NCBI GenBank assembly: GCA_964016885.1
Contig: OZ024759.1
Coordinates: 30,690,001-30,754,000, forward strand
Source: Eledone cirrhosa
Lineage: Eukaryota
Direction of reading: 5' to 3'
Length of the DNA: 64,000 nt
Position 1 is the stretch's first letter; each line of letters opens with the position of its first letter. Positions 291 to 64,000 of the stretch are shown piece by piece. The notes under the pieces were generated by a model. That model worked only from the letters and a program-made list of their open reading frames with translations. It had not been told where the DNA came from and ran no database searches. The translations under genes were made by a program, and so were the position numbers.

Positions 291-293
<3 letters not shown>

Positions 294-766
294 ATAATAA
301 TAAATTTGAAGACTAAAATCTAAAGAGGGCTCGATAAGGATAAATATATATCAAATATATAAGAACCGTAGAGCAAATACTTATTAAAATAACAGATCAA
401 AGTTTAAGCAAAGAATCGCTGCTTTCACCCTTAACGGGATCTTCTGAAGCTAACAAAGTTAATCTGTAAATCCGAATCACCTAAGAGAACATTAGTATAC
501 GACTTCTATTATACCATAAACGTGGTCCTCTCTTTGCGTGGAATTGTTTTTCACCGCTCTTATTAATGACGTATTATATTCGTTTTTTCCCGTTCTTTGC
601 CAGGAAACGTTTCCACGAACCAAAGTATCGTCTTACTGTCTTCCTCCGGTTGCAACGTTTTTTAAATATCCACTTCTGCATTTACAGATTGACTTTGTTA
701 GTTTCAGAAGATCCCGTTAAGGGTGAAAGCAGCGATTCTTTGCTTAAACTTTAATCTGTTGTTTTA

Positions 767-770
<4 letters not shown>
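291..770. mobile_element. Fold-back hammerhead mini-element, family A, in (TA)n
   Basis: Inverted arms ~380-470 and ~680-770, (TA)n on both sides. Related copies at 38194-38360, 54185-54390 and 60527-60550. Confidence 0.7.
685..758 (+). ncRNA. Type I hammerhead ribozyme, U4A core variant (family A)
   Basis: cagattga[ctttgtt]agttt-CAGAAGA-tccc/gttaa/gggt-GAAA-gca..tgc-TT-aaact-ttaatctg. An inverted copy lies at 393-466 (-) and another copy at ~38275-38345 (+). Confidence 0.6.
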
Positions 771-852
<82 letters not shown>

Positions 853-1440
853 TACATATATAATTTTTCTGTCTAACTAATTAATAAAAAAAAATTCAAA
901 TCAAAGAAAAAAAAATCTGTAATTTTCTAATTGAAATGCTAACAGACAAAATTAGAGTTCCTGTGAAATTATAGAATCCATATCGCGTTGAAATTGTTTG
1001 ATTTAATTACCACCGAACTAGAATACATCCACATAATTATCGAACGAAGAAACTATTTTAAAAAGAAAAACGTAAAGAAAAAAAAAAAAGGAATTTCTAG
1101 AGAGGAAGTGGAAAAGATTAATAACCACGTAAATACAAAAGTGATATTGAATTTTAATAAATTGAATTCGAGTAATATTCCATTTTCCTTATTGTTTTAC
1201 AAAGACATTAGAGTGCGGTCATGCTGAAGCACTGACTTGTAGGGTTATAGTGGATTGTATAAAGACCTATAGTTGGATTTTGCTAGCCTGATCTGATAAC
1301 TGCCTCCTAAGCGAATCCACTTCGTCCAGCTGTCAATTTATGGAACACAAAGAAAAAATACACAGATGTAAACTCTTTCTCTCTCTCTCACACACATATG
1401 CACACAAACACACACACACACATACACACACACATATATA

Positions 1441-1638
1441 TAACAAAGAAAGTGTGGTAAGATAACAGGTGGACCATAACGCACCAGAGTACTCGATACT
1501 TGGGGTAATAGGAAAATAATCACGACACCGACGGCTGAGCTTCGGCCGTTTCGACAGCTACATTCAAACAGTTCGGATCTACCTGTCGAAACGGCCGGAG
1601 CTCAGCCGTCGGGATCCTGACTCTGTTACTCTTTTCCT
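1441..1638. mobile_element. Fold-back mini-element, family F (hammerhead 3' half only)
   Basis: Inverted ccgacggctgagct.cggccgtttcgacag arms, each reading GAAA-cggc/../gccg-TC. Related copies or pieces at 1-93, 6395-6770, 14650-14760, 15750-15885, 16350-16455, 34572-34715 and 50955-51013, all next to (TA)n. Confidence 0.65.
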
Positions 1639-2702: not shown

Positions 2703-2751
<49 letters not shown>

Positions 2752-2754
<3 letters not shown>

Positions 2755-3196
2755 AAAGTTTTATTTAAAATTGTTGGGTTACAACAAGTAAATATTTTAT
2801 AACTGATATAAAGCACTCAACAAGTTTTGGAGTAGATATACGATAGTAAACAAATGGAAACTATATTTATAAAACCATATTTATTTCATTATACATATTT
2901 CGGGGATACCATATTAAAAATATGGCATGCCTTCTTCAGATAAAATACAATATATAAACAGTTTTATAAATAATTTTGACGTACCATAAATATTTATCAA
3001 ATATTGATCACTACCAAACCAACTTCTTACATAAAAGTTGATCAATATTTATGGTACGTCAAAATTATTTATAAAACTGTTTATATATTGTATTTTATCT
3101 GAAGAAGGCATGCCATATTTTTAATATGGTATCCCCGAAATATGTATAATGAAATAAATATGGTTTTATAAATATAGTTTCCATTTGTTTAATATC

Positions 3197-3197
<1 letters not shown>
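2752..3197. mobile_element. Fold-back hammerhead mini-element, family B, in (TA)n
   Basis: ~150-bp inverted arms (2848-3008 and 3039-3197), a tail at 2752-2835, and (TA)n flanks. Confidence 0.75.
3091..3156 (+). ncRNA. Minimal type I hammerhead ribozyme (family B)
   Basis: tattttat-CTGAAGA-aggcatgccatatt/ttt/aatatggtatcccc-GAAA-tatgta-TA-atgaaata. Mirror copy at 2882-2947 (-). Confidence 0.72.
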
Positions 3198-3244
<47 letters not shown>

Positions 3245-3651: not shown

Positions 3652-3802
3652 AGAAGAATTTGAAAATATAATTGATGTCTCGAAGAAGATTTATTGATAA
3701 TAAGTTTACCGGCTTCACGTTTCAGTGATTATCCCATATGGGATATAAAATAAATATATTTTCTGTTATATATTACCAGGTGGTGCTATTAAGTGAGACA
3801 TG

Positions 3803-3986
3803 GTGGTGGATTGGCAGTATCGGTAGAGGGTCGGACGCCATGCTTTCCAGCATAGTTACGTCCCTTTATGATCTGAGTTCAAATCCCGCCGAGGTTGACT
3901 TTGCCTTTCATCCTTACGGGGTCGATAAAATAAAGTACCAGTAATGCACTGGGTAATTTGCTGGCCTTGTGCCTAAAGTAGAAACA
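3803..3986 (+). mobile_element. tRNA-derived CORE-type SINE with 15-bp TSD
   Basis: B-box gagttcaaatccc and central gactttgcctttcatcc..ggggtcgataaaataaagtaccag. TSD attaagtgagacatg at 3788-3802 and 3987-4001. Confidence 0.85.
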
Positions 3987-4153
3987 ATTAAGTGAGACAT
4001 GACCTGGGCCGACACAGGCCGAAACCTATTAAGGTTCTCTCTCTATATATATATACATATATATAATATATATATATATATATAATATATATATATATAT
4101 ATAATATAGTGACGAAACATAAGTCAATTGCATGAACTCATAATCCTTTATTT

Positions 4154-6355: not shown

Positions 6356-6396
<41 letters not shown>

Positions 6397-7082
6397 CAAA
6401 GAAAGTTTGGTAAAATACCAGGTGGACCATAATCCACCAGTATACTCGATACTTAGGGTTGTAGAGTGCGTAATAGGAAAAGTCAGGACCCCGACGGCTG
6501 ATCTTCGGCCGTTTCGGATCTCAGCCGTCGGGGTCCTGACTCTTTTCCTATATATATATATATATATATATAATCAGAATGGTGGTGGTAAAAGCCGGTT
6601 AGACCATTACTCAACAGAGTAGACGATACTTGGGTTAGTAAAGTGAGTAACATGAAAAATTTGGGATCCCGAGGGATGAGCTCCGGCCGTTTCAATAGTT
6701 AGATCCTAACTGTTCGGATCTAACTGTTGAAACGGCCAGAGCTCAGCCGTCGGCATCCCAAATGTTTCATATATATATATAGGAAGGTTGGCTGAAAATT
6801 CACAGGCTGGCCACGATACTTTCAAGATGAGAAAATACATGAGAAATTTTTGAACTTTTACTTCTGTGTTTGAGCATATAAGAAAGTAATTAAGTATCCC
6901 GCAAGCTCAGAAACAGTCATTTTCCATTATGACAATGAAGAAAAGACATCAAAATATATATATATAAGTTAAAAGCAGAAAATGTATTAGCAGAAAATTC
7001 ATAGTTTCTTCATTACATATAACACTGAATGAACATCAACAAATAGATGAATAGTATTCTTTTTTTGTATATGAGATTAGCT

Positions 7083-16452: not shown

Positions 16453-16486
<34 letters not shown>

Positions 16487-16526
16487 GATATTAAACAAAT
16501 GGAAACTATATTTATAAAACCATATT

Positions 16527-16592
16527 TATTTCATTATACATATTTCAGGGATACCATATTAAAAATATGGCATGCCTTCGTCAGATAAAATA
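16527..16592 (-). ncRNA. Minimal type I hammerhead ribozyme (family B) in fold-back element 16486-16783
   Basis: Minus strand: tattttat-CTGACGA-aggcatgccatatt/aatatggtatccct-GAAA-tatgta-TA-atgaaata. Confidence 0.72.
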
Positions 16593-16780
16593 CAATATAT
16601 AAACAGTTTTATAAATAATTTTGACGTACCCTGAAATATGTATAATGAAATAAATATGGTTTTATAAATATAGTTTCCATTTGTTTAATATCGTATATCT
16701 ACTCCCAAAACTTGTCGAGTGCTTTATATCGGTTATAAAATATTTACTTGTTGTAACCCAACAATTTTAAATAAAACTTT

Positions 16781-16855
<75 letters not shown>

Positions 16856-17166: not shown

Positions 17167-20107
17167 ATTCCTTGAATCTCAGTCATTGATGTTGGTTAAC
17201 TGGAAAGTCCGTTGGATTGAATATCAAGCCACTACCTGCAGCCTCAGATATTCAGGACGTATCGGAGGGTTCTTGCCGTTCCAAGCAAGCATGCTTTTTG
17301 AAGCGTTCCAAAAAGCGTGAAGGGGCCGATTTTCTTTAACCATCCCTGGAAACCTTTGGAGATAGTCCCCAGTGCGCCTATGACAATCGGGATCACTTTG
17401 ACTTCATGGCAGTTCCAAATCCTTTTCACCTCCCACTTTAGGTCCTGGTATCGGTTAATTTTCTCCCTCTCCTTCTCTTGCACTCTCGTGTCGAACGGGC
17501 AGGCCACATCCACAATCAGGCACGATCTTTTTTCTTTGTCCACAACCACCAGGTCAGGTCTATTGTGTTCCAGTTTTTTGTCCGTCTGTATCCTAAAATC
17601 CCACAGCACCTTCACCTGACTGTTCTCCATCACCGCCTCTGGCCTATGCTCATACCATTTCTCAGAATGTGGTAGATTGTTTACTTTGCACAGGTGCCAG
17701 TGGATCACCCTGCCCATCACATCGTGTCTCCAGCCCTTATAGTGGGTCTGGGCTAGGTGTTTACACTCGGACACAATGTGAGCCACAGTCTCCTCTCTCT
17801 CTCCACAGATCCTGCACAGTGGGCTAGCCTCCTCCTTGTAGATATGGTGCTTCAACCACTTCGTTTTGAGGGCCTGCTCCTGCGCAGCCATTAGCATTCC
17901 TTCTGTAGCCTTTTTGAGGTCTCCTCTTCTCAACCAGTTCCATGTCTGTGGATCTCTAAATTCAGTTTTCTCAAAGAAGGTACTATGAAGGGATTTTCCC
18001 TTAAGGCTGCTCTTCCTCCTTGATGTTATTTCCTCCTTGGGTATCCCCTGGCCTACTGTCCCCTCCTTCAGTACAGCTCTGAGCATTGGCTCCTTACTAT
18101 AGGTCACGTATTTGTATAGGTTGTTTTTCTCCATCTGAACACAGTCCTCTATGCTGATAAGACCTCTTCCACCCTCAGATCTCCTTAGGTAGAGTCTATC
18201 GACATCACTCCTCTTGTGGAACATGTTGTAGATAGTCAATAGCTTCCTAGTCTTCCTATCCATTTCTTTTTGTTCAGCAACATTCCATCTCAGAATTCCC
18301 GCACTGTACCTAATAATAGACACAGCTCGGGAATTTACTGCGCTTATGGCATTTCTGCTGTTCAGATGTGACTTCAATACGCTCCTTACTCTCCGAATGT
18401 ATTCAGTTCTTAACAATTCCTTCATTTTTTTGTTCTTTATGCCATCAGCCTCCAGAACGCCCAAATACTTGTATCCTTCCTCAGAGTCAATTTCCTTTAT
18501 CATCTCACCTGTTGGTATCTGGATCCCGTTACTTCTGCTCAAACTACCCCTCCTCATCACAATGACTCCACATTTACCAATACCAAACTGCATACATATA
18601 TCACTGCTGAAAATACGGACAGTGTCAACAAGCACATCCAACTCCTTCTCACTTTTCCCGAAGAGCTTAAGATCGTCCATGAAGAGGAGGTGATTGATGG
18701 TAAGCTCTCCCCTTCCCAACTTGTATCCTGCTCTCACTTTTCGCAGCATAATGGTCAAGGGCATCAGGGCAAGGACAAACAACAGAGGGGACAGGCTATC
18801 TCCCTGGAAGATACCTCTCTTGATCTTCACGCTTCCCAAGGATACTCCAGTTGATGTCAACTCTGTCTCCCAGGACCCCATACTCCTGCCCAGCAACTGT
18901 CTGATGTTATCTGCCACCCTGAAGATCTCCAGGCTTTTGGTGATCCAGGAATGAGGCACCATGTCAAATGCCTTTCTGTAGTCTATCCATCCCATGGCAA
19001 GATCAGTGTGTCTCCTCCTGCAATTCCCCATTACCATCTTATCAATAAGCAACTGGTCCTTTGTACCACGTGACTTCTTTCGGCATCCTTTCTGTTCGTC
19101 CGGCAACAAGTTGTTTGTGTGGAGGTGATGGTAGATTTCCTCAGACACAATGCTCGTCAACAGTTTCCACATTACGGGCAGACATGTGATAGGTCTATAG
19201 TTGGTAACATCATTACCCTTGATTCGGTCTTTCATTATCAGAACTGTGGTACCTTTTGTCAACCACTCTGGCACCTCACCCGACACCAAGCAGTCATTGA
19301 ACATGGCCGTCAGCTTCGGGTGGAGGGATGTTAAATGTTTAATCCAATACCCCTGCACACCATCTGGGCCTGGTGATTTCCAGTTGGTTAGTTTTTTGGC
19401 TTGCCCCTTAAGAGTTTCAACTGTGATACTCAAATCAGTCTGTTGCTGTGCCTGCTCACCGATCTCCCTCTGTACTGTCTCAATCCACCCTGCCTGGGCA
19501 TTGTGTCTAACATCCTGCTCCCATATTCCTCTCCAGAATGTTTTAGCTTGTTCCGCCCCAGGGATCAAGTCGTTGCCTCTTTCTTTCCCCTCAAGCTGTC
19601 CAAACAGCATCTTCTGGTTGTTGTCGAACATGCGGTTCTGTTTATACTGACTGACTCTGTTCTCGTATCGCCTGATTTTTGCACTCTTTGCTACAATGCG
19701 TTGCTTCAATTCCTCTATGATAATATTTAGCTTTTTACTCCTAGTTTTGTATTTTATTTCCACTCTATTTTTAGTGCCTATGTTTTTTAGTGTCCCATTC
19801 AGTAGTGACTCAAGCTTTCCTATGTCATTTCTCATTTCCCCGATTTGCCCACTCAGTCGCTTCTTCCACCACGGCTCTGCTCTTTCTTGTCTGTTGTTTC
19901 CTCTCGCTTTTATACCAAGTAGTTTCCTCACCGTATTTGCTGTTGCTTTGAGGATATTGTTGCACTGGTGAAGACTCCTCGCCTCAAGGTATGGGATGAC
20001 TTTGTTTACCTTAGCTGTTGTTTCTTTTAACTTTTTCCTGTCTACAAATCTTAGGTTCATAGGTCTCCCACTATCATTGTTCAACTCATCTACCACTAAA
20101 TTTAGGA

Positions 20108-20109
<2 letters not shown>
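17167..20109 (-). mobile_element. 5'-truncated R4/Dong-clade non-LTR retrotransposon inserted in (TAA)n
   Basis: Long RT-RLE ORF with a ~75 nt 3' UTR (17168-17243). (TTA)n tracts lie on both sides (~17072-17166 and ~20110-20150). The reading frame runs open into the upstream (TAA)n, so the element is 5'-truncated. Confidence 0.9.
17244..20096 (-). CDS. Reverse transcriptase / CCHC zinc knuckle / restriction-like endonuclease polyprotein (N-terminally truncated)
   Basis: RT motifs KSPGPDG, NYRPITCLP, WIDYRKAFD, RGIFQGDSLSPLLF, HLLFMDDLKL and YKYLG. CRICGEREETVAHIVSEC knuckle, RHD, and RPDLVVVDK..DVACP..K..Y.DL endonuclease motifs. No stops in 950 codons. The GTG 'start' is an artefact of truncation. 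Confidence 0.95.
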   Translation of the reverse strand: MVDELNNDSGRPMNLRFVDRKKLKETTAKVNKVIPYLEARSLHQCNNILKATANTVRKLLGIKARGNNRQERAEPWWKKRLSGQIGEMRNDIGKLESLLNGTLKNIGTKNRVEIKYKTRSKKLNIIIEELKQRIVAKSAKIRRYENRVSQYKQNRMFDNNQKMLFGQLEGKERGNDLIPGAEQAKTFWRGIWEQDVRHNAQAGWIETVQREIGEQAQQQTDLSITVETLKGQAKKLTNWKSPGPDGVQGYWIKHLTSLHPKLTAMFNDCLVSGEVPEWLTKGTTVLIMKDRIKGNDVTNYRPITCLPVMWKLLTSIVSEEIYHHLHTNNLLPDEQKGCRKKSRGTKDQLLIDKMVMGNCRRRHTDLAMGWIDYRKAFDMVPHSWITKSLEIFRVADNIRQLLGRSMGSWETELTSTGVSLGSVKIKRGIFQGDSLSPLLFVLALMPLTIMLRKVRAGYKLGRGELTINHLLFMDDLKLFGKSEKELDVLVDTVRIFSSDICMQFGIGKCGVIVMRRGSLSRSNGIQIPTGEMIKEIDSEEGYKYLGVLEADGIKNKKMKELLRTEYIRRVRSVLKSHLNSRNAISAVNSRAVSIIRYSAGILRWNVAEQKEMDRKTRKLLTIYNMFHKRSDVDRLYLRRSEGGRGLISIEDCVQMEKNNLYKYVTYSKEPMLRAVLKEGTVGQGIPKEEITSRRKSSLKGKSLHSTFFEKTEFRDPQTWNWLRRGDLKKATEGMLMAAQEQALKTKWLKHHIYKEEASPLCRICGEREETVAHIVSECKHLAQTHYKGWRHDVMGRVIHWHLCKVNNLPHSEKWYEHRPEAVMENSQVKVLWDFRIQTDKKLEHNRPDLVVVDKEKRSCLIVDVACPFDTRVQEKEREKINRYQDLKWEVKRIWNCHEVKVIPIVIGALGTISKGFQGWLKKIGPFTLFGTLQKACLLGTARTLRYVLNI

Positions 20110-20153
<44 letters not shown>

Positions 20154-20253
20154 CCGCCGAGATTAACTTTGCCTTTCATCCTTCCGGGGTCGATAGAATA
20201 GAGTACCAGTAATGCATTGGTGCATTGCTGGCCTTGTGCCAAAAGTAGAAACA

Positions 20254-20359: not shown

Positions 20360-20544
20360 CGCTTCTTCTTTTGCTGCTCCTCCGCCTCCTCCTTCACTCT
20401 ATTACGCTCTCTGTATATTCTCATGTCATTCTCTCTATAAAAGTTACCATATTCTAGCAAGGGAAGCAACTCTTAATAGCCTAGTCGTCGAATATTAATC
20501 TATTAGACTATCACCAAACAACGATTACATTAGTTAACTGCTAG

Positions 20545-20727
20545 GTGGATTGGCAGTATTGGTAGAGGGTCGGAGGCCATGCTTTAACGTATAGAGTTAC
20601 GGCCCTTGCCATTCTGAGTTCAAATCCCACCGAGGTTAACTTTGTCTTTCATCCTTACGGGGTCGATAAAATAAAGTACCGGTAATACACTGGTAATTGC
20701 TGGTCTTGTGCCTAACGTAGAAACATT
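20545..20727 (+). mobile_element. CORE-type SINE copy (a truncated copy lies at 20151-20254)
   Basis: Colinear with 3803-3986. Confidence 0.8.
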
Positions 20728-21383
20728 TATGTGACCTATTGGCAACGGTACAGACGTTGGTAGTAGTAAAGTACTGATCCTAATATGTGTACAGTACCTA
20801 ATAGTGCTATGTTTTGTATGTTCTCTCTCTTTATATAGGAAAGTCATGGGGTACTCTAAGTAACATGTGTAGTGCCTAGTATTCTATTTTCTGTATGTTG
20901 TATATATGTATATATATGTAAGTCCTGTGGTACTCAAGGTAATATGGCTGCAGTACCTATTAATTCTATTTTCTGTATGCTGTATATATTTGTTAATCGT
21001 GGGGTATTTTATGTAATATGTCTGAGCAGTAGCTAGAAAGGTTATATTCTGTATCATCATCTTCATCATCATGATCATCACCATTCCATCTTCCACGCTA
21101 GCATGGGTTAGACGGTTTTGTTCCATTTGATGCGGGATTAGTTGGGGGACGTTGCCTCGCTCGCACGGAAGTGACTTTGGCAGGTTTTCTACGGCTGGAT
21201 GCCCTTCGTAACACCAACCACTTTTACATTTATATATTTGTATATATTTGTAAATCGTGGGGTATTTTATGTAATGTTTACAGTGCATAGTAGTGCTATA
21301 TTCTGTATGTTATATATATTTTTAAATTGTGGGGCACTGTATGAAATAAGTGAGCAGTGCCTAGTATTGCTACATTCTGTATG

Positions 21384-21414
<31 letters not shown>

Positions 21415-21454
21415 CGATACTAACAAATGGAAACTATATTTATAAAACCATATT

Positions 21455-21519
21455 TATTTCATTATACATATTTCAAGGATACCAAGTTAAATTATGGTAT
21501 GCCTTCATCAGACAAAATA
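21455..21519 (-). ncRNA. Minimal type I hammerhead ribozyme (family B)
   Basis: Minus strand: tattttgt-CTGATGA-aggcatacca..tggtatcctt-GAAA-tatgta-TA-atgaaata. Confidence 0.65.
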
Positions 21520-21602
21520 CAATATATACCAGTTTTAGTGCTTTACATCAGTTATAAAAATATTTGCTTGTTGTATCCCAACAATTTAAATAGAACTTTT
21601 GC

Positions 21603-25008: not shown

Positions 25009-25192
25009 TTGTTTCTACTTTTGGCACAAGGCTAACAATTATCCCAGTGCAATACTGGAACTTTATTTTATCGACCTCGTAAGGATGAAATACAAAGTTA
25101 ACCTCGGCGGAATTTGAGCTCAGACCATAAAGGGCTGTGACTCTTTGCTGCAAAGCATGGCGTCCTACCCTCTACCGATACTGCCAATCCAC
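25009..25192 (-). mobile_element. CORE-type SINE copy
   Basis: Reverse complement of the 3803-3986 family. Confidence 0.8.
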
Positions 25193-25484: not shown

Positions 25485-25740
25485 GTAAGATACATTCAAT
25501 ATTGGTTTAGTATTACTTAGGATGAAAACAGATATGGTTGTGTTGTAATGTGATTTCGTAAATGTCTTAATATATATGTATATAATATATATATAACATG
25601 CATATATAAATATATATAAATATCCAACCGATAAGGTATGATTTTCATGGGTATGTCTCTATTTATAAAACAAACTTTGTATTTTATCTGATGAAAGCGT
25701 ACCAATGTGTCTTGGTACCCTTGAAATATATATAATATAA

Positions 25741-25873
25741 TTGTTTCTACTTTTGGCACAAGACCAGCAATTATCCAATGCATTACTGGTACTTTATTTT
25801 ATCGACCCCGTAAGGATGAAAGGTAAAGTTAACCTCGGCGGGATTTGAACTCAGAATGGCAAGGGGCGTAATG
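25741..25873 (-). mobile_element. 5'-truncated CORE-type SINE inserted into a hammerhead-bearing element
   Basis: Family match. Flanking duplication tatataatataa at 25729-25740 and 25874-25885. Confidence 0.8.
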
Positions 25874-25931
25874 TATATAATATAATAAAATAAATATGGT
25901 TTTATAAATATAGTTTCCATTTATTTAATAT

Positions 25932-25995
<64 letters not shown>

Positions 25996-27172: not shown

Positions 27173-27252
<80 letters not shown>

Positions 27253-27342
27253 ATATTAAATAAATGGAAACTATATTTATAAAACCCTATTTATTTTATT
27301 ATCTGATTTTCATGGGTACGTCTCTATTTATGAAACAAACTG

Positions 27343-27407
27343 TATTTTATCTGATGAAAGCGTACCAATGTTGTCTTGGCTGCCCTTGAAATATATATAA
27401 TAAAATA
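27343..27407 (+). ncRNA. Minimal type I hammerhead ribozyme (family B) in element ~27248-27545
   Basis: tattttat-CTGATGA-aag..ccaa..ttgg..ctt-GAAA-tatata-TA-ataaaata. Confidence 0.68.
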
Positions 27408-27544
27408 AATATGGTTTTATAAATATAGTTTCAATTTATTTAATATCATTGAATATTTACTCCAGTAACTTGTTGAGTGCTCTAAATCAGTTATAAACAT
27501 TTATGTTTGTCGGACTTCGAACACATTAAATACAACTTCTACTA

Positions 27545-27589
<45 letters not shown>

Positions 27590-30219: not shown

Positions 30220-31280
30220 GGTTTTCTAAATAGTTAAGAATGCTTTGAAAATAATTAAGAATGCTTTTGTAAATAAAGCCAACAGCTTTTGTAAATAATG
30301 CAAAATGTTTTGAAAATAATTAAGAATGATTTGCAAGTAATTAAGAATGCTATAGTACTTAATTGTGAAGCTTTGTGGTTAGGATATTCGGTTCACGATC
30401 GTAAGGTCATGAGTTCAATTCCCGGCGGTGCGTTGTGTCCTTGAGCAAGATACTTTATTTCACATTGCTCAAGTCCACTCAGCTGGCAAAGATGAGTTGT
30501 GCTTTTAATTCGAAGGGCCAGCCTTGTCAAGTTCTGTCTCGTGCTGATTCCCTCTGAGACCTTCGATAAGGGTACGCTTTCCTGTGGTATGTTCAGCCAC
30601 TTGCACGCTAATCTCACGAGCAGACTGTCCCATTGATTGTATCAACTGGAACACTCGTGGTCGTAACCGATCGAGTCCCAGTTAGTAAATAATTAAGAGC
30701 GGTTTGTGTGTAATTGAGAATGCTTTAGTACATAAATCAAAATGCTTTTCTAACTATTTAAGCATGCTTTTGTAAATAATTGAGAATGCTTCGTAAATAA
30801 TGCAGAATACTTTGTAAATAATTTAGAATGCTTTGTAAATATTTTAGAATGCTTTGTAAATAATTTAGAATGCTTTGTAAATAATGCAGAACGTTTTGTA
30901 AATAATTGTTTCTACTTTTGGCACAAAGCCAGCAATTATCCCAGTGCATTACTGGTACTTTATTTTATCGACCCCGTATGATGAAAGGCAAAGTTAACCT
31001 CGACGGGATTTGAACTCAGACCGTAAAGAGACGTAACTATGCTGGAAAGCATGCCGTCCGACCCTCTACTGATACTGCCAATTCACCGCCTTTTGTAAAT
31101 AATGCAAAATGCTTTTCTAACTCATTTAGAATGCTTTGTAAATAATGCAAAATGCTTTTGTAACTCATTTAGAATGCTTTGTAAATAATGCAGAATGCTT
31201 TTCTAACTCATTTAGAATGCTTTGTAAATAATGCAGAATGCTTTTGTAAATATTTCAGAATGCTTTTGTAAATAAAATGT
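30220..31280. repeat. 21-22-bp AT-rich minisatellite interrupted by two SINEs
   Basis: Unit tgtaaataat(tt/gc)agaatgctt(t). Confidence 0.8.
30906..31090 (-). mobile_element. CORE-type SINE inserted in an AT-rich minisatellite
   Basis: Family match. Flanked by ttttgtaaataat on both sides. Confidence 0.8.
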
Positions 31281-31854: not shown

Positions 31855-31855
<1 letters not shown>

Positions 31856-32295
31856 CCAAATGTTAAACAAGGTTCATTGATTATTCAATGAATATAGTTT
31901 AACAATAGATTAAAAGCACTCATCAAAGAACTTTTCTGGAGTTATTAATATTATTTAAAATATTAATAAATGGATACATTCACATAATCAAAGTATATGT
32001 TTTATTATATATATTTCGGAGGTACTGTGTTGTTTTTTCAGTACGTCCTCATCAGATAAAATACATAAATTGATGTATGACATACCTCAATTGTGCTGAT
32101 GGTTCAATTTCAGTCTTGGCAGTGACTGGAATTGACTTGCCAAGACTGGAATTAAACCATCAGCACAGTTGAGGTATGTCATACATCAATTTATGTATTT
32201 TATCTGATGAGGGCGTACTGAAAAAACAACACAGTACCTCCGAAGTATATATAATAAAACATATACTTTGATTATGTGAATTTATTAATATTTTA

Positions 32296-32302
<7 letters not shown>
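31855..32302. mobile_element. Fold-back hammerhead mini-element, family C, just 3' of the ERGIC1 stop
   Basis: ~160-bp inverted arms (31950-32110 and 32150-32302), a tail at 31855-31945, and (TA)n flanks. A second copy lies at 61019-61382. Confidence 0.75.
31998..32063 (-). ncRNA. Minimal type I hammerhead ribozyme (family C)
   Basis: Minus strand: ttttat-CTGATGA-ggacgtactg/../cagtacctcc-GAAA-tatata-TA-ataaaa. The + strand mirror (32196-32261) has GAAG instead of GAAA. Confidence 0.72.
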
Positions 32303-33071: not shown

Positions 33072-33102
<31 letters not shown>

Positions 33103-33115
33103 TTTTAACATAGAT

Positions 33116-33168
33116 GAGATTCTACAGGACTAGGACTGTTTCATTCTTTAGAAATCATCAGGAATCTC
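33116..33168 (-). ncRNA. Type I hammerhead ribozyme (family D) in fold-back element 33101-33285
   Basis: Minus strand: gagattc-CTGATGA-tttc/taaa/gaat-GAAA-cag/tcctagtc/ctg-TA-gaatctc. 7-bp stem I, GUA cleavage triplet. Confidence 0.82.
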
Positions 33169-33284
33169 TAAAGAATGAAACAGCCCTAGTCCTGTAGAAT
33201 CTCATCTATATTAAAACTGTTATACTCTGCAATGTATTGAGTACCTTACTTACTGTGGTTACCTCCTATTCCACCCGGAATAAC

Positions 33285-33335
<51 letters not shown>

Positions 33336-37523: not shown

Positions 37524-37762
37524 TATATATACATATATATTATATATATATCTATGTAAAGATGTGAGTCTCTGGTTCATTTGGGGGACTCAATAAATTA
37601 GTAGAGTGTAAACATCAAATTTAATATAGAAATGGCTTCTACATCACGAGAACTGTTTCATTTAAAAGAAATCATCATACATATATATACTGTATGTGTA
37701 TATGTATATATATATATTCAATTATATTAAATAAATGGAAACTATATTTATAAAACCATATT

Positions 37763-37823
37763 TATTCTATTATATATATTTCAAGGGTACCAAAACGTTG
37801 GTACGCACTCATCAGATAAAATA
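37763..37823 (-). ncRNA. Minimal type I hammerhead ribozyme (family B) in fold-back element ~37720-38085
   Basis: Minus strand: tattttat-CTGATGA-gtgcgtaccaa/cgtt/ttggtaccctt-GAAA-tatata-TA-atagaata. Confidence 0.68.
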
Positions 37824-38081
37824 CAAAGTTTGTTTTATAAATATTGACATAACCAGGAAGAAGAACTTAACAGTTCAAGTTTTTCCTGGATAGTATCCAA
37901 GGATACCAAAGTTGTGGTACCCTTGAAATATATATAATAGAATAAATATGGTTTTATAAATACAATTTGCATTTATTTAATATCATTGCATATTATACTC
38001 CAGAAAACTTGTCGAGTGCTTTGAATCAGTTATAAACATTTATATTTGTTGAATTACCAACAAATTGAATACCCCTTTTGC

Positions 38082-38159
<78 letters not shown>

Positions 38160-40580: not shown

Positions 40581-40747
40581 TTCTACAGTTCGTATATTTA
40601 TATATATATTTGTCATTTTAAAGTATCAGATATGTCAATTACCTTTTATTGTTTCTCATTTTCACGTACATTCATACCATCCATTTTGTGATGACAAAAT
40701 CCAAATAGATATTTGAGAACGACCGATGCTTGGAGAGTTATATTTAA

Positions 40748-41140
40748 TAATTGTTTCTACTTTTGGCACAAGGCCAGCAATTACCCAGTGCATTACTGGT
40801 ACTTTATTTTATCGACCCCGTAAGGATAAAAGGCAAAGTTAACCTCGGAGGGATTTGAACTCAGAATGGCAAGGGCCGTAACTCTATACGTCAAAGCATA
40901 GCGTCCGACCCTCTACTGATACTGCCAATCCACTATATATATTAATTGTTTCTACGTTTGGCACAAGGCCAGTAATTAACCACTACATTACTGGTACTTT
41001 ATTTTATCGACCCCGTAAGGATGAAAGGCAAAGTTAACCTCGGAGGGATTCGAACTCAGAATGGCAAGAGCCCTAACTCTATACGTCAAAGCATAGCGTC
41101 CGACCCTCTACTGATACTGCCAATCCACTATATATATTAA
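40748..41140 (-). mobile_element. Tandem pair of CORE-type SINE copies
   Basis: Two near-identical ~195-bp units (40748-40943 and 40944-41140) that share diagnostic variants and the flank ctatatatattaat. Confidence 0.8.
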
Positions 41141-41572
41141 TGATGTGAAATTAAACCAGCTATGAATACCAACTCATTGATTCATTATATCAGCTAGATG
41201 CTTTATTGCTCAATTCCCATGAAAATTACTAGAGCACCAGGTGAGATAACTCACAGCATTCTTCCCTTCCAGTTGCATTGGTAGTTGTGAAATGATGAGG
41301 AAGATTCTTCATGTTACCAGCGCCATTATCAATGGTTCGGATCTTACCAATTGTACCGTCAAGAAGCCCAAATATTGGTTTCTGATTTAGGCACGAGGCC
41401 AGCAATTTTGGGCCAGAGAGGAATGTCTGTCTTTGTCTCTCTCTCTCTCTCTCTCACTCTCTCTCACTCTCTCTCTCCGTCTCTCTCTGTTTATCACTGT
41501 CTCTATCTCTCTCTCTCTCTCTCTCTCTCCGTCTCTCCCTCTTTATCACTGTCTCTCTCTCTCTTTGTCACT

Positions 41573-41623
<51 letters not shown>

Positions 41624-41639
41624 TCCCTCCAGCTCTCAA

Positions 41640-41855
41640 TTATTTCTGATTTTGACACAAGACCAAACATTTGAGAGGAGGGGCAATTCGATTCAATCGA
41701 CCCCAGTACATTACTGGTACTTTATTTTATCGACCCAATAAGGATGAAAGGCAAAGCTAACTTCAGCAGGATATGAACTCACATTGTAAAGGAGCGTAAC
41801 TCTATGCCATAAAGCATGTTGTCCGACACTCTAGCAATACTGGCAACCCACTGCC
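41640..41855 (-). mobile_element. CORE-type SINE copy (older)
   Basis: Family match with more divergence. Confidence 0.7.
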
Positions 41856-43053
41856 CTCAGTAGTTAAATTACTGGTATCAGTACAGTTGCAGTAAACATA
41901 TTGCCCTGGTGTATCTCTCGAAACGATCGGTGTCTCCATTGAATTGGTGTGCCCTGAGTGTGGATTCTTTGCTTAAGCAAAAATGGTCTCAGGAGCTACA
42001 GTCGTAGCCATGTTCAAAGAGAACCAGTTGAACTATGATTTCCACGGTGTTGTGAGGGTTCTGCAACCGATTGCAATACTCTTAGCGTGAGTTTACATCA
42101 TTTGTGTATGTATGTATGTATGCATGTATGTATGTATGTATGTATGTATGTATGTATGTATGTATGTATGTATGTATGTATATGTATATATATATATGTA
42201 TATACATGTATGCCTGTGTATGTATATGCGCGGGGACATAAATATAGTAGGGTTGGATACTCGATCCCACGGTTAAACCACTGGGAGTGAAGGACCCCTA
42301 GCCTTTGTCAGGGCATTCTTCTAGAAGGCGACTCAGGAAACTGGCATAATTACGACTCAAAACCTGCGGCTCAGTAGTTAGCGATGATGTTAATCTGTTA
42401 TTCTTTTCGGGTTATAGCTATGTATGTATATATATATGGGAGAGATGACCCCTTAGCCTTTGTCAAGGCAGAATTCTAGGAGAAGGAAAACTCTGATAAA
42501 ACACCTGCAACCCTGATGATATCCAATGATGTTGACTTGTTCTTTTTGGTAAATATCATCTTGGTTAAGAGAGTGGGACTGGCTTTGTGCAGGAATTGCT
42601 TTATATCTGGAGATCTCTGTGCACTTGTCGTCACATGGTACCATGGGCCCAGTACTATGTATCAATAATTGTCACAAGTGTAGTGTTTGTACCAGAGTTT
42701 TCAAGTCGCTGGCACTCGTTCAGCGCATCGGTAGGGGTTCTCCTACATGGATATAAAGTAGTGGCCGTACTCGAAAACGAGTTGGCAGCCACCATGTATG
42801 TGTGTATCGAGGTATGTATGTATAATGTATGTATATATGTATGTATGTATGTATGTGTGCGAGGTGTGTTTACCGGCAATAAATCTAATTATAATTTTTT
42901 TAACACCACCTTCTCGACATCCGTTACTTCAACTTCAAGACTCGACAACAGAATAAAGTAAGACATAGTATGAAAAATGCGTATATGAAATAAAATATAT
43001 TTTATGATAGTCCTGGAATATTTACTATCACAGGTGGAATGTTGTTGTGTGTG

Positions 43054-46835: not shown

Positions 46836-48671
46836 ACGACTAGCTTCTGCCTAGCTTGTGTGTATTGTAATGAATTGGTTAAATATGAAAGATACATAGT
46901 GATACAGGTATCGGAATTTATGTAAGCTATTTTTTATATTCGTCTATTAATCGAAGTATTATATTAAAAGAAAATAGAAATTTAAAAGTGAAGAACATAA
47001 TAAAATGAAATAAGATAACTTTTTTTTAAAAAATCTCAGATAAAACACTTAACGAATTGACACTTCTTGAATGTATTATACAAAAAAAAAATATATTGAA
47101 AAAATGAATAAGAAAAAGTTGGAATGAGACGAACCTATACAACAATATCGCTACGGCTGTAACAGCATTCTTATTTAATGAATCAAATCTGGAATTTATT
47201 TGATAGCATGGAGAACAATGGAAGCATTCTTTCCTGTCAATTCTCAAGAGATTCTCACAAGTAGGTGTATTGCGAATATATAGGGGGTTTTTTTTGTAGG
47301 GATTTTTTTTGTTGTTATTTTGTTATTTTTGAACATAAAAATCCTCTACTTTAAATAAAATATAATTTGTCCTAGAAACTTTGAATAGCTATTCCTTTTG
47401 ATCAATATAACAATCCTATTGTAATTTGTCACCACTAATGCCACCGATGTCGGCTTCACCACCGCTACTGTCGCCGTGGTCGTCGCCTTCACCACCCTTA
47501 TATGCCACCGACATCGCCTTCACCACCCTTACTGCCACCGACATCACCTTCACCACCACTACTGCCACCGACACCACCTTCACCACCATTACAGCCGTCG
47601 TCTTCGCTCGCTTATCAGCGCTACGTTTTGCGTTGTTTCGACTCTGTTGCTAGTTCTTCTTCTTATTATTATTATTATTATTTTTCTATGACAACTAGCA
47701 TATCAATAAAAGTGCACACACCTTACCAATATATATGTTATACAATATATTTACCGAGATTAAATTTTGCCAGTATTTATTTTACCTGCCTATACTTCCA
47801 GGGTCGATGGAATATTTAGCAAATCATTAATGTGTATCAATCCACTATAATCTTCTCTAAAATATGTTTACTATTGGGCCTAGGGCGCTGCGTTAATGGA
47901 GATGCGCCCCGCGGTCAATGGTTAATAACGTATCCGCTGCAACAGCTTTGAATTATATGCTTGTTACTGGTTAATGTGGCTAGATAACTGCAGGAAAAGC
48001 TACAGATAAAAATAGTAAAATAAAGACTTACAGAAATTGAAATATATACGAACGACAGGAATACATTGTTTACTCAGACCAAGAAAATAAGTTTTCATTA
48101 ATCCTTTCATTACTGGTACAGACTACCTATCGAAACTCCTGGCAGAAAGATCAGAACTTTTCCCGTATTTGAATTAAGAATGTACAGACTTGTACCAGCA
48201 ACCGCAAAGTGTTCTGTCCGATTCTCAATACAAAAGGCTGACCAGATGATACTGAGTTCTGGCATAAGATATTATGTGGCTTTTTAGACCATATATATAT
48301 ATATATATATATATATGTGTAGATAAATCTACCAAAAGTTTACGGTAGTGTCCAATCCGTATGAAGAACTCAATGTAATCCGGATATCATGGAAAGAAGA
48401 GATGCATTCAAAAATCACTTTCGGTGAAAGATAAACGGAATACAGAGTCAAGATAAAATATTAAAAAAATAATGAATAAAACAAAGAAACAGTTCCTTAT
48501 ATTAAACAAAAAAAGTTCTAAAATAATGAACTTTTTTTGTTTAATATAAGGAACTGTTTCTTTGTTTTATTCATTATTTTTTTAATATTTTATATATATA
48601 TATATAGTTTTGCGAGGTTTTTTATATGAAATCGTGTGTCGAAACAAATATTGTTATACTTATAATAATAT

Positions 48672-51629: not shown

Positions 51630-51850
51630 TTGGAGGGCGGTGGATTGGCAGTATCGGTAGAGGGTCGGACGCCATGCTTTGCCGCATAAAGTTAAGGCTC
51701 TTTATGATCTGAGCTCAAATCCCGCCGAGGATAACTTTGCCTTTCATCCTTATGGGGTCGATAAAATAAAGTACCAGTCACCCACTGAGGTCGATTTAAT
51801 CGACTTTCCCCTCCCCCCCCAAATTACTGGCCTTGTTCCTATATAAGAAA
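51630..51850 (+). mobile_element. Same CORE-type SINE family with 18-bp TSD
   Basis: Same head and core. TSD tcattaattatctcatat at 51612-51629 and 51851-51868. Confidence 0.85.
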
Positions 51851-56875: not shown

Positions 56876-56879
<4 letters not shown>

Positions 56880-57142
56880 TGGAACACTGGAAGGTAATAT
56901 CCGTAGTGGTAGAGCACTCAGTCCATGGGACGAGTTAGGTAGAAGTGGTTACACAACAGTTAGTTCACCATACCGAGAACAATTGTTTCACCTTAGCGGA
57001 TCCTCAGCTCGTATTGGGCACTGTTATAGGAACAGGAAGGACCTTCCTGTTCCTGTAACCATGCCCAATACGAGCTGAGGATCCGCTAAGGTGAAACAAT
57101 TGTTCTCGGTGTGGTGAACTAACTGTTGTGTAACCACTTCTA
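56876..57142. mobile_element. Fold-back hammerhead mini-element, family H
   Basis: Near-perfect ~100-bp inverted arms (56940-57040 and 57042-57142) around a 1-nt centre. Tail at 56876-56939; (GA)n/(TA)n flanks. Confidence 0.75.
57071..57108 (+). ncRNA. Minimal type I hammerhead ribozyme (family H), 38 nt
   Basis: cgag-CTGAGGA-tcc/gctaa/ggt-GAAA-caattg-TT-ctcg, with a palindromic stem/loop III. Identical mirror copy at 56974-57011 (-). Confidence 0.72.
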
Positions 57143-57311
57143 TATATATATATATATATGTATGAATGAAGTAATTCCTTCGGAAAAGTCCAGGAAAAAG
57201 AGTGCTCTATGTATGCAACAGAGCTTAATTATTATTATTATGTAATAAACAACATAAGGCAATTATTCCATTTACCAGTGGTTTCTTAATTCAATAAACA
57301 AACCAGGATTT

Positions 57312-57369
57312 TTCATTCTGAGGATTGAAAGCAAAACCTTTTGCTTTTAAGAAACCACTGGTAAATGGA
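57312..57369 (+). ncRNA. Type I hammerhead ribozyme (family J) in fold-back element ~57160-57405
   Basis: ttcatt-CTGAGGA-ttgaaagcaaaa/cc/ttttgcttttaa-GAAA-cc/act/gg-TA-aatgga. Confidence 0.75.
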
Positions 57370-57403
57370 ATAATTGCCTTATGTTGTTTATTACATAATA
57401 ATA

Positions 57404-57434
<31 letters not shown>

Positions 57435-57474
57435 CAGATGTGAGAAAAACCACAGACCCTCCATCTCAACTCTA

Positions 57475-57511
57475 CTTTTGAAAAGCAGAAGAACTGCGAA
57501 ACCGGTAAAGG
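57475..57511 (+). ncRNA. Putative minimal hammerhead with U3-A8 core variant (family G)
   Basis: ctt-TTGAAAA-gcag/aagaa/ctgc-GAAA-ccgg-TA-aag. Related copies at 48856-48895 (-) and 48936-48975 (+). Confidence 0.5.
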
Positions 57512-58065
57512 AACCAAATAAATATATATATATATTTTTAAATAAGACTCCAGTTGCATTTTAGATTTCATCTTTTTTTCTTTCTACATACATATACACA
57601 TATAATTATCTATAACTATATTAGTGTACGTAATTATGGATGGAAGATGGATGGTTGCGTATGTATGTATCTATGTATGTTACTATATATGCATGTGTGT
57701 ATATGTTTGTGTCCATGTAGGTATTAGTATGTACATAGCTAATGACATAAATACATACTTGTAAAACAAACACCAACACACATTCACATAACTAAACTTA
57801 TGAATAATGGGACCAAATTTAAATTCATAAGCTTACGCACGCACATACATACATATACTCACACTCACATACACGTGTGTGTATTGGGTGTACTTATATA
57901 AATATGTATATATGGGTGTATATACCTGTATATTTATATATCTATATATGTACAAATACACACACATATATAAATACATACACACATTCATACATACGTA
58001 CACACACACATGTATATATATATATTTATATATATATATATACATATGTATATGTATCTATATAC

Positions 58066-60978: not shown

Positions 60979-61020
<42 letters not shown>

Positions 61021-61161
61021 CCTAAAATTAATATGGTTCATTGATTACTCAATGAATATAGTTTTACAATAGATTAAAAGCACTCTACAGCTAAGTTTTC
61101 TGGAGTTATTAATATTATTCAAAATATTAATAAATGAAGACATTCACATAATCAAAATATA

Positions 61162-61227
61162 TGTTTTATTATATATATTTCGAAGGTACTCTGCTGATTT
61201 TTCAGTACGTCCTCGTCAGATAAAATA
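61162..61227 (-). ncRNA. Minimal type I hammerhead ribozyme (family C)
   Basis: Minus strand: ttttat-CTGACGA-ggacgtact/../agtaccttc-GAAA-tatata-TA-ataaaa. Confidence 0.68.
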
Positions 61228-61406
61228 CATGAATTGATGTATGACATACCTCAGCGGTCTTGATGGTTCAATTCCAGTATTTGCAGTACTGACAATACTG
61301 GAATTGTACCTTCGAAATATATATAGTAATACATATATTTTGATTATGTGAATGTCTTCATTTATTAGTATTTTGAATAATATATATATATATATTTATC
61401 TATATA

Positions 61407-61724: not shown

Positions 61725-62275
61725 AAACAAACATAGACATCTAGTGTATATTTCAAATATTATATGTAGATATAGTTTATATAATTTTTGAAATATACTC
61801 TAGACGCCTATGTTTGTTTACAAATATAGATTTTTAAAACTAGTCTACACACACATACGTACATATTCATATTATATACCATAGATGCTGATTTAAATAC
61901 AAATGCTTTTAGATTGATCAAATATTTGCTGAACGAACATTCTGTGAATGTATCATATATAGTATAAATTTTATTTTTCCTAAGAATACATCTTTCATTG
62001 ACGTTGGAATATCTTCAATGGTGCTTCTTTGTATGACGTCGTAAACTTTGTTGATCCAAGAGAGCATTCAAATGTGTCGGAAACATTAATGTATCCAAGA
62101 AGGTAAATGAGTAAATGTAAGAGAAGTGGGGAGGTAAATAGAGATAAAGTATATGATCAGTGCTTAACTTGGGGTTATGCAACGGCAACAGTTACTACCA
62201 CCGATGTTACGTCAATTTTTAAGGTATTGGAACGGCCCAACTCCAATTGTCATCGCCTCCATCTCTCTGGCGCTT

Positions 62276-62987
62276 CCCATCTCTCCGTATGGTGAGCAAA
62301 TGTGGTCTCACGTGCTGACCGCCCCCCCCCCCATCTCTCTGTATGGTGAGCAAATGTGGTCCCAAGTGCTGACCTCCCCATCTCTCTGTATGGTGAGAAA
62401 ATGTGGTCCCAAGTGCTGACCTCCCCATCTCTCTGTATGGTGAGCAAATGTGGTCCCAAGTGCTGGCCTCCCCACCTCTCTGTATGGTGAGCAAATGTGG
62501 TCCCACTTGCTGGCCTCCCCATTTCTCTGTATGGTGAGCAAATGTGGTCCCAAGTGCTGGCCTCCCCACCTCTCTGTATGGTGAGCAAATGTGGTCCCAC
62601 TTGCTGGCCTCCCCACCTCTCTGTATGGTGAACAAATGTGGTCCCAGGTGCTGACCTCCCCACCTCTCTGTATGGTGAACAAATGTGGTCCCAGGTGCTG
62701 ACCTCCCCACCTCTCTGTATGGTGAACAAATGTGGTCCCAGGTGCTGACCTCCCCATCTCTCTGTATGGTGAGAAAATGTGGTCCCAAGTGCTGACCTCC
62801 CCATATCTCTGTATGGTGAGCAAATGTGGTCCCACTTGCTGGCCTCCCCACCTCTCTGTATGGTTAGAAAATGTGGTCCCAAGTGCTGACCTCCCCACCT
62901 CTCTGTATGGTGAGCAAATGTAGTCCCAAGTGCTGACCTCCCCATCTCTCTGTATGGTAAGCAAATGTGGTCCCACTTGCTGGCCTC
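62276..62987. repeat. 47-bp minisatellite, ~15 copies
   Basis: Unit ccccatctctctgtatggtgagcaaatgtggtcccaagtgctgacct; period 47 (62341 to 62388). Confidence 0.92.
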
Positions 62988-63277
62988 GTCACATCCCTGG
63001 CGGACAGAATGGAGAAGGTAAATTACATTTATGTTATGTCTAGAGCTTTATAAGGTCGCACGAAATATTAATTATTTCCACAGCTAGACAGCCGAGCCTT
63101 ATCCCATCCTCATATAGGAGGGTCGGGAGGAGGGGAGGCATGGACTTATGGACCAGTAACTCTCCATCGTTTCCTGTCTCTTACCATTGCTGTACATTCC
63201 ACCAAACTTCTTCCTGTCCATTCCCTCATATCATCTGACCATCTCCTTTTCTGCTGCCCCCTGGCCTTTTCCCACTG

Positions 63278-64000
63278 TATTCACACATATACACATGTAT
63301 ACATACATTCACACATATACACATGTATACATACATTCACACATATACACATGTATACATACATTCACACATATACATATGTATACATACATTCACACAT
63401 ATACACATGTATACATACATTCACACATATACATATGTATATATACATTCACACATATACACATGTATACATACATTCACACATATACACATGTATACAT
63501 ACATTCACACATATACATATGTATATATACATTCACATATATATACATGTATACATACATTCACACATATACACATGTATATATACATTCACACATATAA
63601 ACATGTATATATACATTCACATATATATACATGTATACATACATTCACACATATACACATGTATATATACATTCACACATACACACATGTATACATACAT
63701 TCACACATACACACAGGTATACATACATCACACATACACACATGTATACATACATTCACACATACACACAGGTATACATACATTCACACATACACACATG
63801 TATACATACATTCACACATACACACATGTATACATACATTCACACATATACACATATATACATACATTCACACATACATACATGTATACATACATTCACA
63901 CATATATACACATATATACCATACATTCACACATTTACACATGTATACATACATTCACACATACACACATGTATACATACATTCACACATATACACATAT
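63278..64000. repeat. 28-bp minisatellite running to the window end
   Basis: Unit cattcacacatatacacatgtatacata; period 28 (63281 to 63309). Confidence 0.92.

Follow-up and report, generated by a model that had tools for sequence, protein, structure and literature searches.

Long and short 3′ ends of Hydra-clade Penelope-like elements in Eledone cirrhosa are paired and lie next to a predicted twin hairpin

In this study we show that a segment at positions 2752–3197 of a 64,000-nt stretch of the Eledone cirrhosa genome (OZ024759.1; hereafter the window) is, judging by its sequence motifs, a 3′-end insertion of a Hydra-clade Penelope-like element (PLE), in which the 3′ end of the element is present twice, head to head, within a (TA)n repeat. 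The outer ends of such insertions were classed as long (L, with a tail) or short (S), and 123 of 135 two-armed insertions in three families (B, F and C) combine one of each, with at most three same-type-like pairs. Each of the two fixed ends is found 6–11 nt 5′ of a conserved bulged hairpin, RCUC...GAGY as predicted for the RNA, usually at a UAU/AUA patch that matches the target. We consider it probable that two reverse transcriptases (RTs), each held by a hairpin on one RNA and primed by the two cut strands of the (TA)n target, set the short and the long end. Inverted arms, a one-sided tail and two start sites in vitro are known from PLEs; the pairing rule and the twin hairpin at the ends we did not find in print.

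A head-to-head 3′ end in a (TA)n repeat

After simple repeats had been masked, the segment matched its own inverse over 348 nt (2847–3191, 93% identity). The left arm extends through 2752–2840 and then runs into (TA)n while the right arm ends at 3197, which confirms the asymmetry that the original prediction had read from this copy; the other family B copies and the tails of families A, C, D, F, H and J likewise lie where it had placed them (Table 1). The sense of the tailed arm is the minus strand, as oriented by the ORF and by the hammerhead motif, and since this motif sets the sense strand both outer junctions are 3′ ends of the element. The tail is likely a single period of a duplicated priming module; within it, hairpin 1 is predicted 7 nt 3′ of the short-end site. 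A fixed base difference between the L and S arms near the short end turned out to be private to the window copy and was dropped.

Insertions from several Hydra families stand next to one another in a single (TA)n tract (loci L120, L247, L253 and L257, and window 56876–57583), each of them bringing additional target repeat. Family K (window 48322–48590; L180–L209) has a 134-nt tail with a long-loop first hairpin, a third RCTC...GAGC hairpin before the ATG and a (TA)n run inside its 5′ UTR. The window further holds eight copies of a dispersed SINE-like repeat of ~190 nt (77–95% identity), tandem minisatellites (62267–62999 and 63279–64000; periods ~47 and ~56 nt) and, at 17244–20162 on the minus strand, an intact open frame of 972 codons, which encodes an RT domain (Pfam RVT_1, E 4e-23), has a zinc/nuclease-like region at its C-terminal end and adjoins an (AAT)n run. 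From its motifs we take this frame to be an R4/Dong-like LINE; as a different LINE type, unrelated to the insertions, it was rejected as driver of the repeats. A MITE or TIR DNA transposon was rejected as well, because the ends are asymmetric, the arms range from 34 nt to >4 kb and they are part of an RT element.

Table 1. Features of the insertion at 2752–3197, other insertions and repeats; positions are those of the window unless a contig is named
Feature	Position	Strand	Basis or remark
(TA)n target repeat, left flank	2707..2751		sequence
Tailed (long-end, L) arm, family B PLE 3′ end, element about −248 to 0	2752..3000	−	98.8% to full-length copy L034
Tail, 84–89 nt from short-end site to long-end site	2752..2840	−	
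Hairpin 1, ACTC...GAGT stem, inner stem and 2-nt 3′ bulge	2815..2833	−	predicted RNA structure
Short-end site on tailed arm, TATAT patch	2834..2840	−	5 nt microhomology to (TA)n target
Minimal type I hammerhead-ribozyme motif in pLTR (CTGAAGA, stem II, GAAA, palindromic stem III), putative	2882..2947	−	motif search
Head-to-head junction, short slipped duplication and microhomology	2995..3011		sequence; 14-nt overlap of arm alignments
Tail-less (short-end, S) arm, element about −296 to −87	3009..3197	+	97% to L034
Second hammerhead motif, within S arm, putative	3091–3156		motif search
(TA)n target repeat, right flank	3198..3235		sequence
Family B insertion, S arm left, L arm right (tail 16696–16783)	16486..16783		hairpin 1 at 16701–16720
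Family B insertion, absent from the original prediction	about 21407/21414..21602		L arm is the last 68 nt of the tail alone (21534–21602)
Lone family B arm, absent from the original prediction	25881–25944		
Family B insertion, older (tail 27455–27545)	27250..27545		hairpin 1 at 27459–27478
Family B insertion, older (tail 37990–38085)	about 37719..38085		hairpin 1 at 37997–38017
Family A insertion (Hydra clade)	291..770		hairpin 1 at 329–374 (−)
Family F insertion (Hydra clade)	1441..1636		5′ side of hairpin 1 lost in copy
Family F copy	6395–6547		hairpin 1 intact at 6444–6467 (−)
Family C insertion (Hydra clade)	31855..32300		hairpin 1 at 31918–31942 (−)
Family C insertion	61019..61385		hairpin 1 at 61082–61106 (−)
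Family D insertion	33091..33285		hairpin 1 at 33224–33242 (+); ORF and hairpin 2 not found
Family H insertion	56876..57142		hairpin 1 at 56916–56935 (−); ORF and hairpin 2 not found
Family J insertion	57160..57406		hairpin 1 at 57204–57224 (−)
SINE-like repeat copies	3802–3990, 20544–20734, 25010–25192, 25727–25871, 30901–31090, 40739–41141, 41638–41858, 51636–51787		
Family F arrays	G000:C1:91476593–91487284, C1:437200326–437210983, C2:320551576–320558728		

The elements belong to the Hydra clade

By extending long copies we recovered a full-length family B element of 4.3 kb with a 2-kb inverted arm (L034). Its ORF and that of a second copy (L031) carry RWR, DKT and YRDD motifs, a CxCx5C linker (CNCRNKSKC in family B) and, at the C-terminal end, a GIY-YIG-like domain that has CxxC and CxH and lacks CCHH; both are frameshifted, and open frames of 745–750 codons are present elsewhere. 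The Hydra clade is defined by this motif set (RWK, DKT for DKG, CxCx5C, no CCHH, CxxC/CxH; PMC8557442), and on these motifs we assign the element to it. Members described by Craig et al. 2021 (PMC8557442), among them Hydra-1_Obim of Octopus bimaculoides, share RWK/RWR, DKT, CxCx5C, a GIY-YIG domain without CCHH and CxxC/CxH with our elements, as well as a pLTR hammerhead, insertion into (TA)n (found here too), an inverted 5′-truncated copy and a one-sided tail. The published elements are below 3 kb with tails of 30–40, whereas those found here measure 3.4–4.3 kb with tails of 60–135 nt; the unit lengths of about 4.1 kb (B), 3.4 kb (C) and 3.5 kb (F) all exceed 3 kb, a limit given as a general tendency of the clade and not as a strict criterion (PMC8557442).

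As in other PLEs, a single ORF places an RT before a GIY-YIG endonuclease, the latter recognised by weak Pfam and fold matches, and a partial-tandem pLTR is combined with an inverted 5′-truncated copy and a tail (L034, L259, L311 and 30 N-terminal loci). The likeness to the Penelope pLTR tail that had been suspected is therefore a real one: the elements are PLEs and the tail is the PLE tail. In the endonuclease, C, E, N and CxH columns are conserved across 16 aligned C-terminal domains; GIY-YIG is the best Pfam family for four of the 16 (best E 1.2e-4, weak), and the top four matches of the predicted fold (pLDDT 83) are to I-TevI and T4 EndoII, again weak (E 0.37–0.45). A Pfam search with two pieces of L031 matched no RT family, and a PDB sequence search gave nothing convincing.

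RWR or KWR together with DKT is present in families A, B, C-type, F and K, and A, C and F run into Hydra-clade ORFs as B does. Judged by these ORFs, A, B, C and F are related members of one clade, contrary to the original prediction, which had treated its families as unrelated. For D and H no read-through into a linked Hydra-type ORF was seen among the pattern matches and the loci looked at; together with J they share hairpin 1 and (TA)n targeting with the Hydra families. The core of the hammerhead motif, a putative ribozyme, is canonical in B, C, D, H and the L033 family. Rfam gave no match at gathering score in the window and, below that score, no hammerhead or other relevant family in four loci. 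Hammerhead cores are degenerate in F (shortened; L330 about 1290–1400, minus strand) and in A (CAGAAGA; L343 about 1330–1400), and both families are abundant with long open frames despite this.

Full-length F units also form true head-to-tail arrays with a period of about 3.54 kb, which are candidate source loci, and at G000:C2:356030062–356030724 an F pLTR fragment is repeated with a 299-nt period in a retrozyme-like manner. Family D tails occur in short tandems of about 60 and 83 nt (L335 1500–1640; G000:C4:369999855–370000018), as if re-primed or template-switched between both sites.

Outer ends are fixed and come in unequal pairs

Insertions were counted in about 1.9 Mb of mostly search-selected loci, and the counts do not describe the whole genome. 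Two sharp outer-end peaks separated by the tail length had been expected, and genome-wide the outer ends of family B are indeed sharp, at 0 or at about −87 when counted from the tail end. A tailed-arm search gave 1,654 first-look candidates, 40 of which were scored; the inverted partners in the 30 loci examined all stop at one point, ~87 nt before the tail end.

That the inversions might be assembly artefacts had been raised with the original prediction itself, and inverted PLE structures are reported to hamper short-read assemblies (PMC8557442). However, in raw RAD data of two other samples the sequence gives way to (AT)n at 2836 in 5,878 and 6,939 reads, which shows that the short end is no assembly artefact; these reads are too short to bear on the long inversions themselves. 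Private mutations moreover separate partner arms and the same ends recur on many contigs, and we find it scarcely conceivable that the structures are artefacts or chance palindromes in microsatellite-rich DNA.

If each end chose its site freely, half of the pairs would be of the same type. In family B, after removal of duplicates, 53 of 59 insertions are L/S, none is L/L or S/S, and six have one end off-site or poorly aligned; a tail-blind subset gave 34 L/S among 38, the other four being unclassified. Family F contributes 46 L/S among 49, with three unclassified (30 loci came from a tail-containing query), and a hand count of family C gave 24 of 27, three loci with one unresolved end being left out. 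The family C exceptions are two long/long-like loci (L311 and L243) and a short/short-like one that is disrupted by other elements (L167). Another candidate short/short insertion (L245) was rejected, as one short arm had been duplicated later with about 450 nt of flank. One-armed copies of either kind exist and were left out of the pair counts.

A predicted hairpin at each of the two end sites

Hairpin 1 lies within the tail and hairpin 2 just beyond the long end, where it is visible in read-through copies only. In family B copies of this kind a TA patch comes after either end point, together with a similar motif (RCTC...GAGY in the DNA), and hairpin 2 was found just beyond the long end in B, C and the L033 family. 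At all 12 sites with known read-through the junction precedes the stem by 6–11 nt; it matches (TA)n over 3–6 nt at eight of them and over 0–2 nt at the other four.

Among 153 tails collected de novo from 1.38 Mb, a set that B and F dominate, RCTC occurs within the first 20 nt in 113, mostly 6–10 nt from the short end; the controls gave 1 for the reverse strand, 17 for the arm and 23 for positions further along the tail. The motif is missing from 14 or so of 34 tail clusters. One of these is a Neptune-like PLE with a CCHH-type endonuclease (L036 2646–5047), which has the same asymmetry and a 56-nt tail without the RCTC/GAGY hairpin, as if it were a second solution to the same geometry; not every clade, then, needs the hairpin for a tail. 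In 16 modules of various families the outer pair is A-U in nine and G-C in seven, and an inner stem of at least 2 bp with a 2-nt 3′ bulge is present in 13, where shuffles gave a mean of 2.3 and a maximum of 9. These modules were selected by motif and their 4-bp core is nearly invariant, so covariation is limited to the outer pair and the inner stem; bulges other than 2 nt measure 0–3, loop length is highly variable and some stems contain G-U pairs. That the RNA folds into this hairpin and positions the enzyme is the likely role that these features predict.

Were the tail a single repeat unit of a duplicated module, hairpin 2 would be expected just beyond the long end of read-through copies. 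Search patterns composed of tail, gap and motif gave 325 matches for family F and 340 for family A with no match to the reversed-pattern controls, and the loci fetched for both families lead to Hydra ORFs; among the 100 F and 100 A matches listed, the great majority show one continuation (TAT, 6-nt spacing, inner stem, 2-nt bulge). The D pattern gave 23 heterogeneous matches and the H pattern six, neither with a coherent read-through. The expectation thus passed two blind tests (F and A), while in two others (D and H) the signal did not appear. A first family C pattern, which yielded one chance match only, was discarded; in the family C read-through copy L311 hairpin 2 lies eight nt beyond the long end. 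The second-site hairpin of family K is irregular, and L212 was rejected as an F read-through because a (TA)n run lies between it and the ORF. Among the published consensuses in File S7 of PMC8557442, compared by eye, Hydra-1_Ajap has both hairpins before the ATG, in Hydra-2_Ajap and Hydra-2_Amil the hairpin is close to the 3′ end, and variants of it occur in Hydra-1_Crog and Hydra-1_Obim; the consensuses with hairpin span coral, sea-cucumber and copepod.

The motif could instead be a DNA site at which the endonuclease cuts the element's own DNA or cDNA during resolution, without any role as an RNA priming signal. Both ends lie in TA-rich patches of the kind the endonuclease favours, the tail has been credited to endonuclease-mediated resolution (PMC8557442), and the tail of the D. 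virilis element is described as required for endonuclease recognition (PMC11167929). A bulged stem with variable loop and G-U pairs, however, suits a single-stranded nucleic acid better than a duplex site, the polarity of both outer junctions is that of target-primed 3′ ends, and RT start sites have been mapped onto tail ends (PMC11167929). We regard resolution by the endonuclease as improbable.

A possible mechanism with two enzymes on one RNA

We infer every biochemical step that follows; the clade, the fixed ends, the pairing, the spacing of the hairpin sequence and the TA microhomology are observed. The GIY-YIG endonuclease would nick each strand of (TA)n. With one enzyme on hairpin 1, the target 3′ end could pair with the UA patch upstream and short-end cDNA would begin; a second enzyme on hairpin 2 would begin the long-end cDNA from the other strand and copy the tail, after which it might stop within the tail or continue across sequence already copied. 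The two 5′-truncated cDNAs would then be joined at their inner ends, often via microhomology. Because each enzyme would start 5′ of its own hairpin, the short arm would lack both hairpins and the long arm would contain hairpin 1 only.

Both cDNAs would likely come from one RNA that reads through the pLTR into the 5′ UTR of the next unit, in tandem or circular form. Such a template must hold hairpin 2 downstream of the pLTR, and the family F tandems (~3.54-kb period) could provide it. A hammerhead-made circle, as proposed in PMC4209133, could do so too; as a requirement we reject it, since true tandems exist. The 5′ ends of 30 near-full-length B copies range from +135 to −716 without a peak, as expected for a template of more than one unit. 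Priming at hairpins finds less support in the four sites with little microhomology, in families D and H, for which no hairpin 2 was found, and in the irregular family K, and the start site of an anole PLE has been reported as not homologous to the cut DNA (PMC11167929), which speaks against priming at TA patches.

Inner junctions and the source of the two arms

The original prediction spoke of a short inverted arm and a variable inner junction. The inverted arm does stop before the tail, but it is not always the shorter one: in 38 cleanly joined B insertions the S arm extends further 5′ in 19, the L arm in nine, and the two end within 10 nt of each other in ten. Inner junctions do vary, from −28 to −4573, but the ends of the two arms are not independent, as those ten compare with 2.8 expected (the sample is skewed to near −250 by the queries). 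The arms overlap by at least 2 nt at 24 of the 38 junctions, at local palindromes.

In two insertions, L257 and L247, L arms of 34 and 81 nt are paired with S arms of 2.3 and 3.7 kb. Neither arm can therefore have arisen by fold-back from the other, and arms that could not have been copied from each other favour two primings. Together with the two start sites seen in vitro for the anole element (PMC11167929) they support what had been proposed from the window alone, namely two-ended, target-primed integration with a fixed second priming site. A single cDNA that folds back and primes its own inverted arm, with central deletions creating the asymmetry later, has been proposed for bdelloid PLEs in its self-priming part (PMC3846280), and the nearly symmetric junctions, the palindromic overlaps and the concordance of the arms described below would agree with it. 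Yet the S arm cannot template the tail, the very short L arms cannot template kilobase S arms, the S arm often reaches further 5′, and the hairpin and TA patch at the S end are left unaccounted for; unless kilobase central deletions are common in copies that are 98–100% like the reference, fold-back is largely refuted, and we hold it to be very unlikely.

Across 8,881 overlapping positions in 39 insertions, 133 non-consensus bases are common to partner arms, which differ at 58 positions, just six of which involve recurrent alleles; differences between permuted partners are 2 to 8 times more numerous than between true ones. This concordance places both arms at one source locus, and they were likely copied from one RNA, although two transcripts of one locus or later gene conversion could alternatively produce it. 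The same two hairpin-set starts might be used on separate RNAs, one per enzyme, with an asymmetric protein dimer enforcing one long and one short end. Overlapping arms would then require no strand displacement, minimal PLE hammerheads, which are thought to act as RNA dimers (PMC4209133), could bring the RNAs together, and the rare long/long-like loci L311 and L243 would be accommodated. On the other hand, several subfamilies coexist and partner arms still rarely differ at subfamily alleles (6 against 133 shared), identical RNAs offer no simple cause for the excess of mixed pairs, and L arms that end in the tail (L247, L257, nearly so L256, and the window copy at 21534–21602) fit a block by the other enzyme on the same RNA. 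Separate RNAs therefore seem to us unlikely, if somewhat less so than resolution by the endonuclease.

Relation to described systems

Inverted truncated copies and a 30–40-bp tail at one end have already been described for PLEs (PMC8557442, PMC3846280, PMC8969392). The original prediction had missed this, as it had missed that its families include members of one clade and that a twin hairpin appears to fix the ends. The closest experimental parallel is PAc, the Poseidon element of Anolis carolinensis (Frangieh et al. 2024, PMC11167929), which is reported to start in vitro at two internal sites bracketing the tail, to use an AT-rich target and to cut and extend both strands, and which is predicted to form a dimer. 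In PAc the tail lies inside the ORF, synthesis starts in an AC-rich stem-loop that lacks homology to the target, and the strands show no difference in start (PMC11167929), whereas the Eledone elements have the tail in the 5′ UTR, a 3′ hairpin and a TA patch of their own at each site and one site of each kind per insertion. Bdelloid Penelope elements (Arkhipova et al. 2013, PMC3846280) resemble ours in that the pLTRs are inverted, only one of the two bears a tail and the junction has palindromes; they differ in the self-priming explanation given, in a 31-bp tail and in visible target-site duplications, which (TA)n hides here.

Penelope-like families of Octopus vulgaris were counted without structural detail in what is available of PMC13282606, and the available part of bioRxiv 10.64898/2026.07.22.740005 mentions neither tail nor stem nor hairpin. 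The main text of PMC8557442 holds no twin hairpin, microhomology or pairing rule, though its consensuses contain the hairpin. A literature search and a word search of that main text, with older reviews and Repbase reports outside their scope, returned no twin hairpin, TA patches or one-long/one-short rule; the pairing rule may already be known to specialists.

A different precedent is twin priming of L1, in which both target strands prime cDNA on one RNA and the inversion is joined by microhomology. In L1 the position of the second site varies and there is no overlap between the cDNAs. The Eledone elements have two fixed sites, about 85 nt apart, and their arms mostly overlap, so we rejected twin priming of the L1 type.

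Implications

How the inverted repeats and the one-sided tail of PLEs arise is a long-open question, and among retrotransposons PLEs are the nearest relatives of telomerase. A conserved, duplicated cis signal would account for both fixed ends across families and phyla. The twin hairpin offers such a signal together with a spacing rule and a pairing rule, all open to point-mutant tests in vitro, and annotators can use it as a short diagnostic motif that also marks the exact boundaries of very abundant repeats resembling unrelated palindromes or MITEs. In its most general form the proposal would be that Hydra-clade PLEs carry out programmed double priming, where a tandemly duplicated UA patch and RCUC/GAGY hairpin, shared across phyla, loads two RTs onto one RNA, each with one cut strand of (TA)n as its primer and with primer alignment of a telomerase-like kind; to this we give an even chance. 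If it is true, every insertion would be born with one long and one short end and would lose the signal needed for further mobility, unless it comes to lie in tandem or is circularised.
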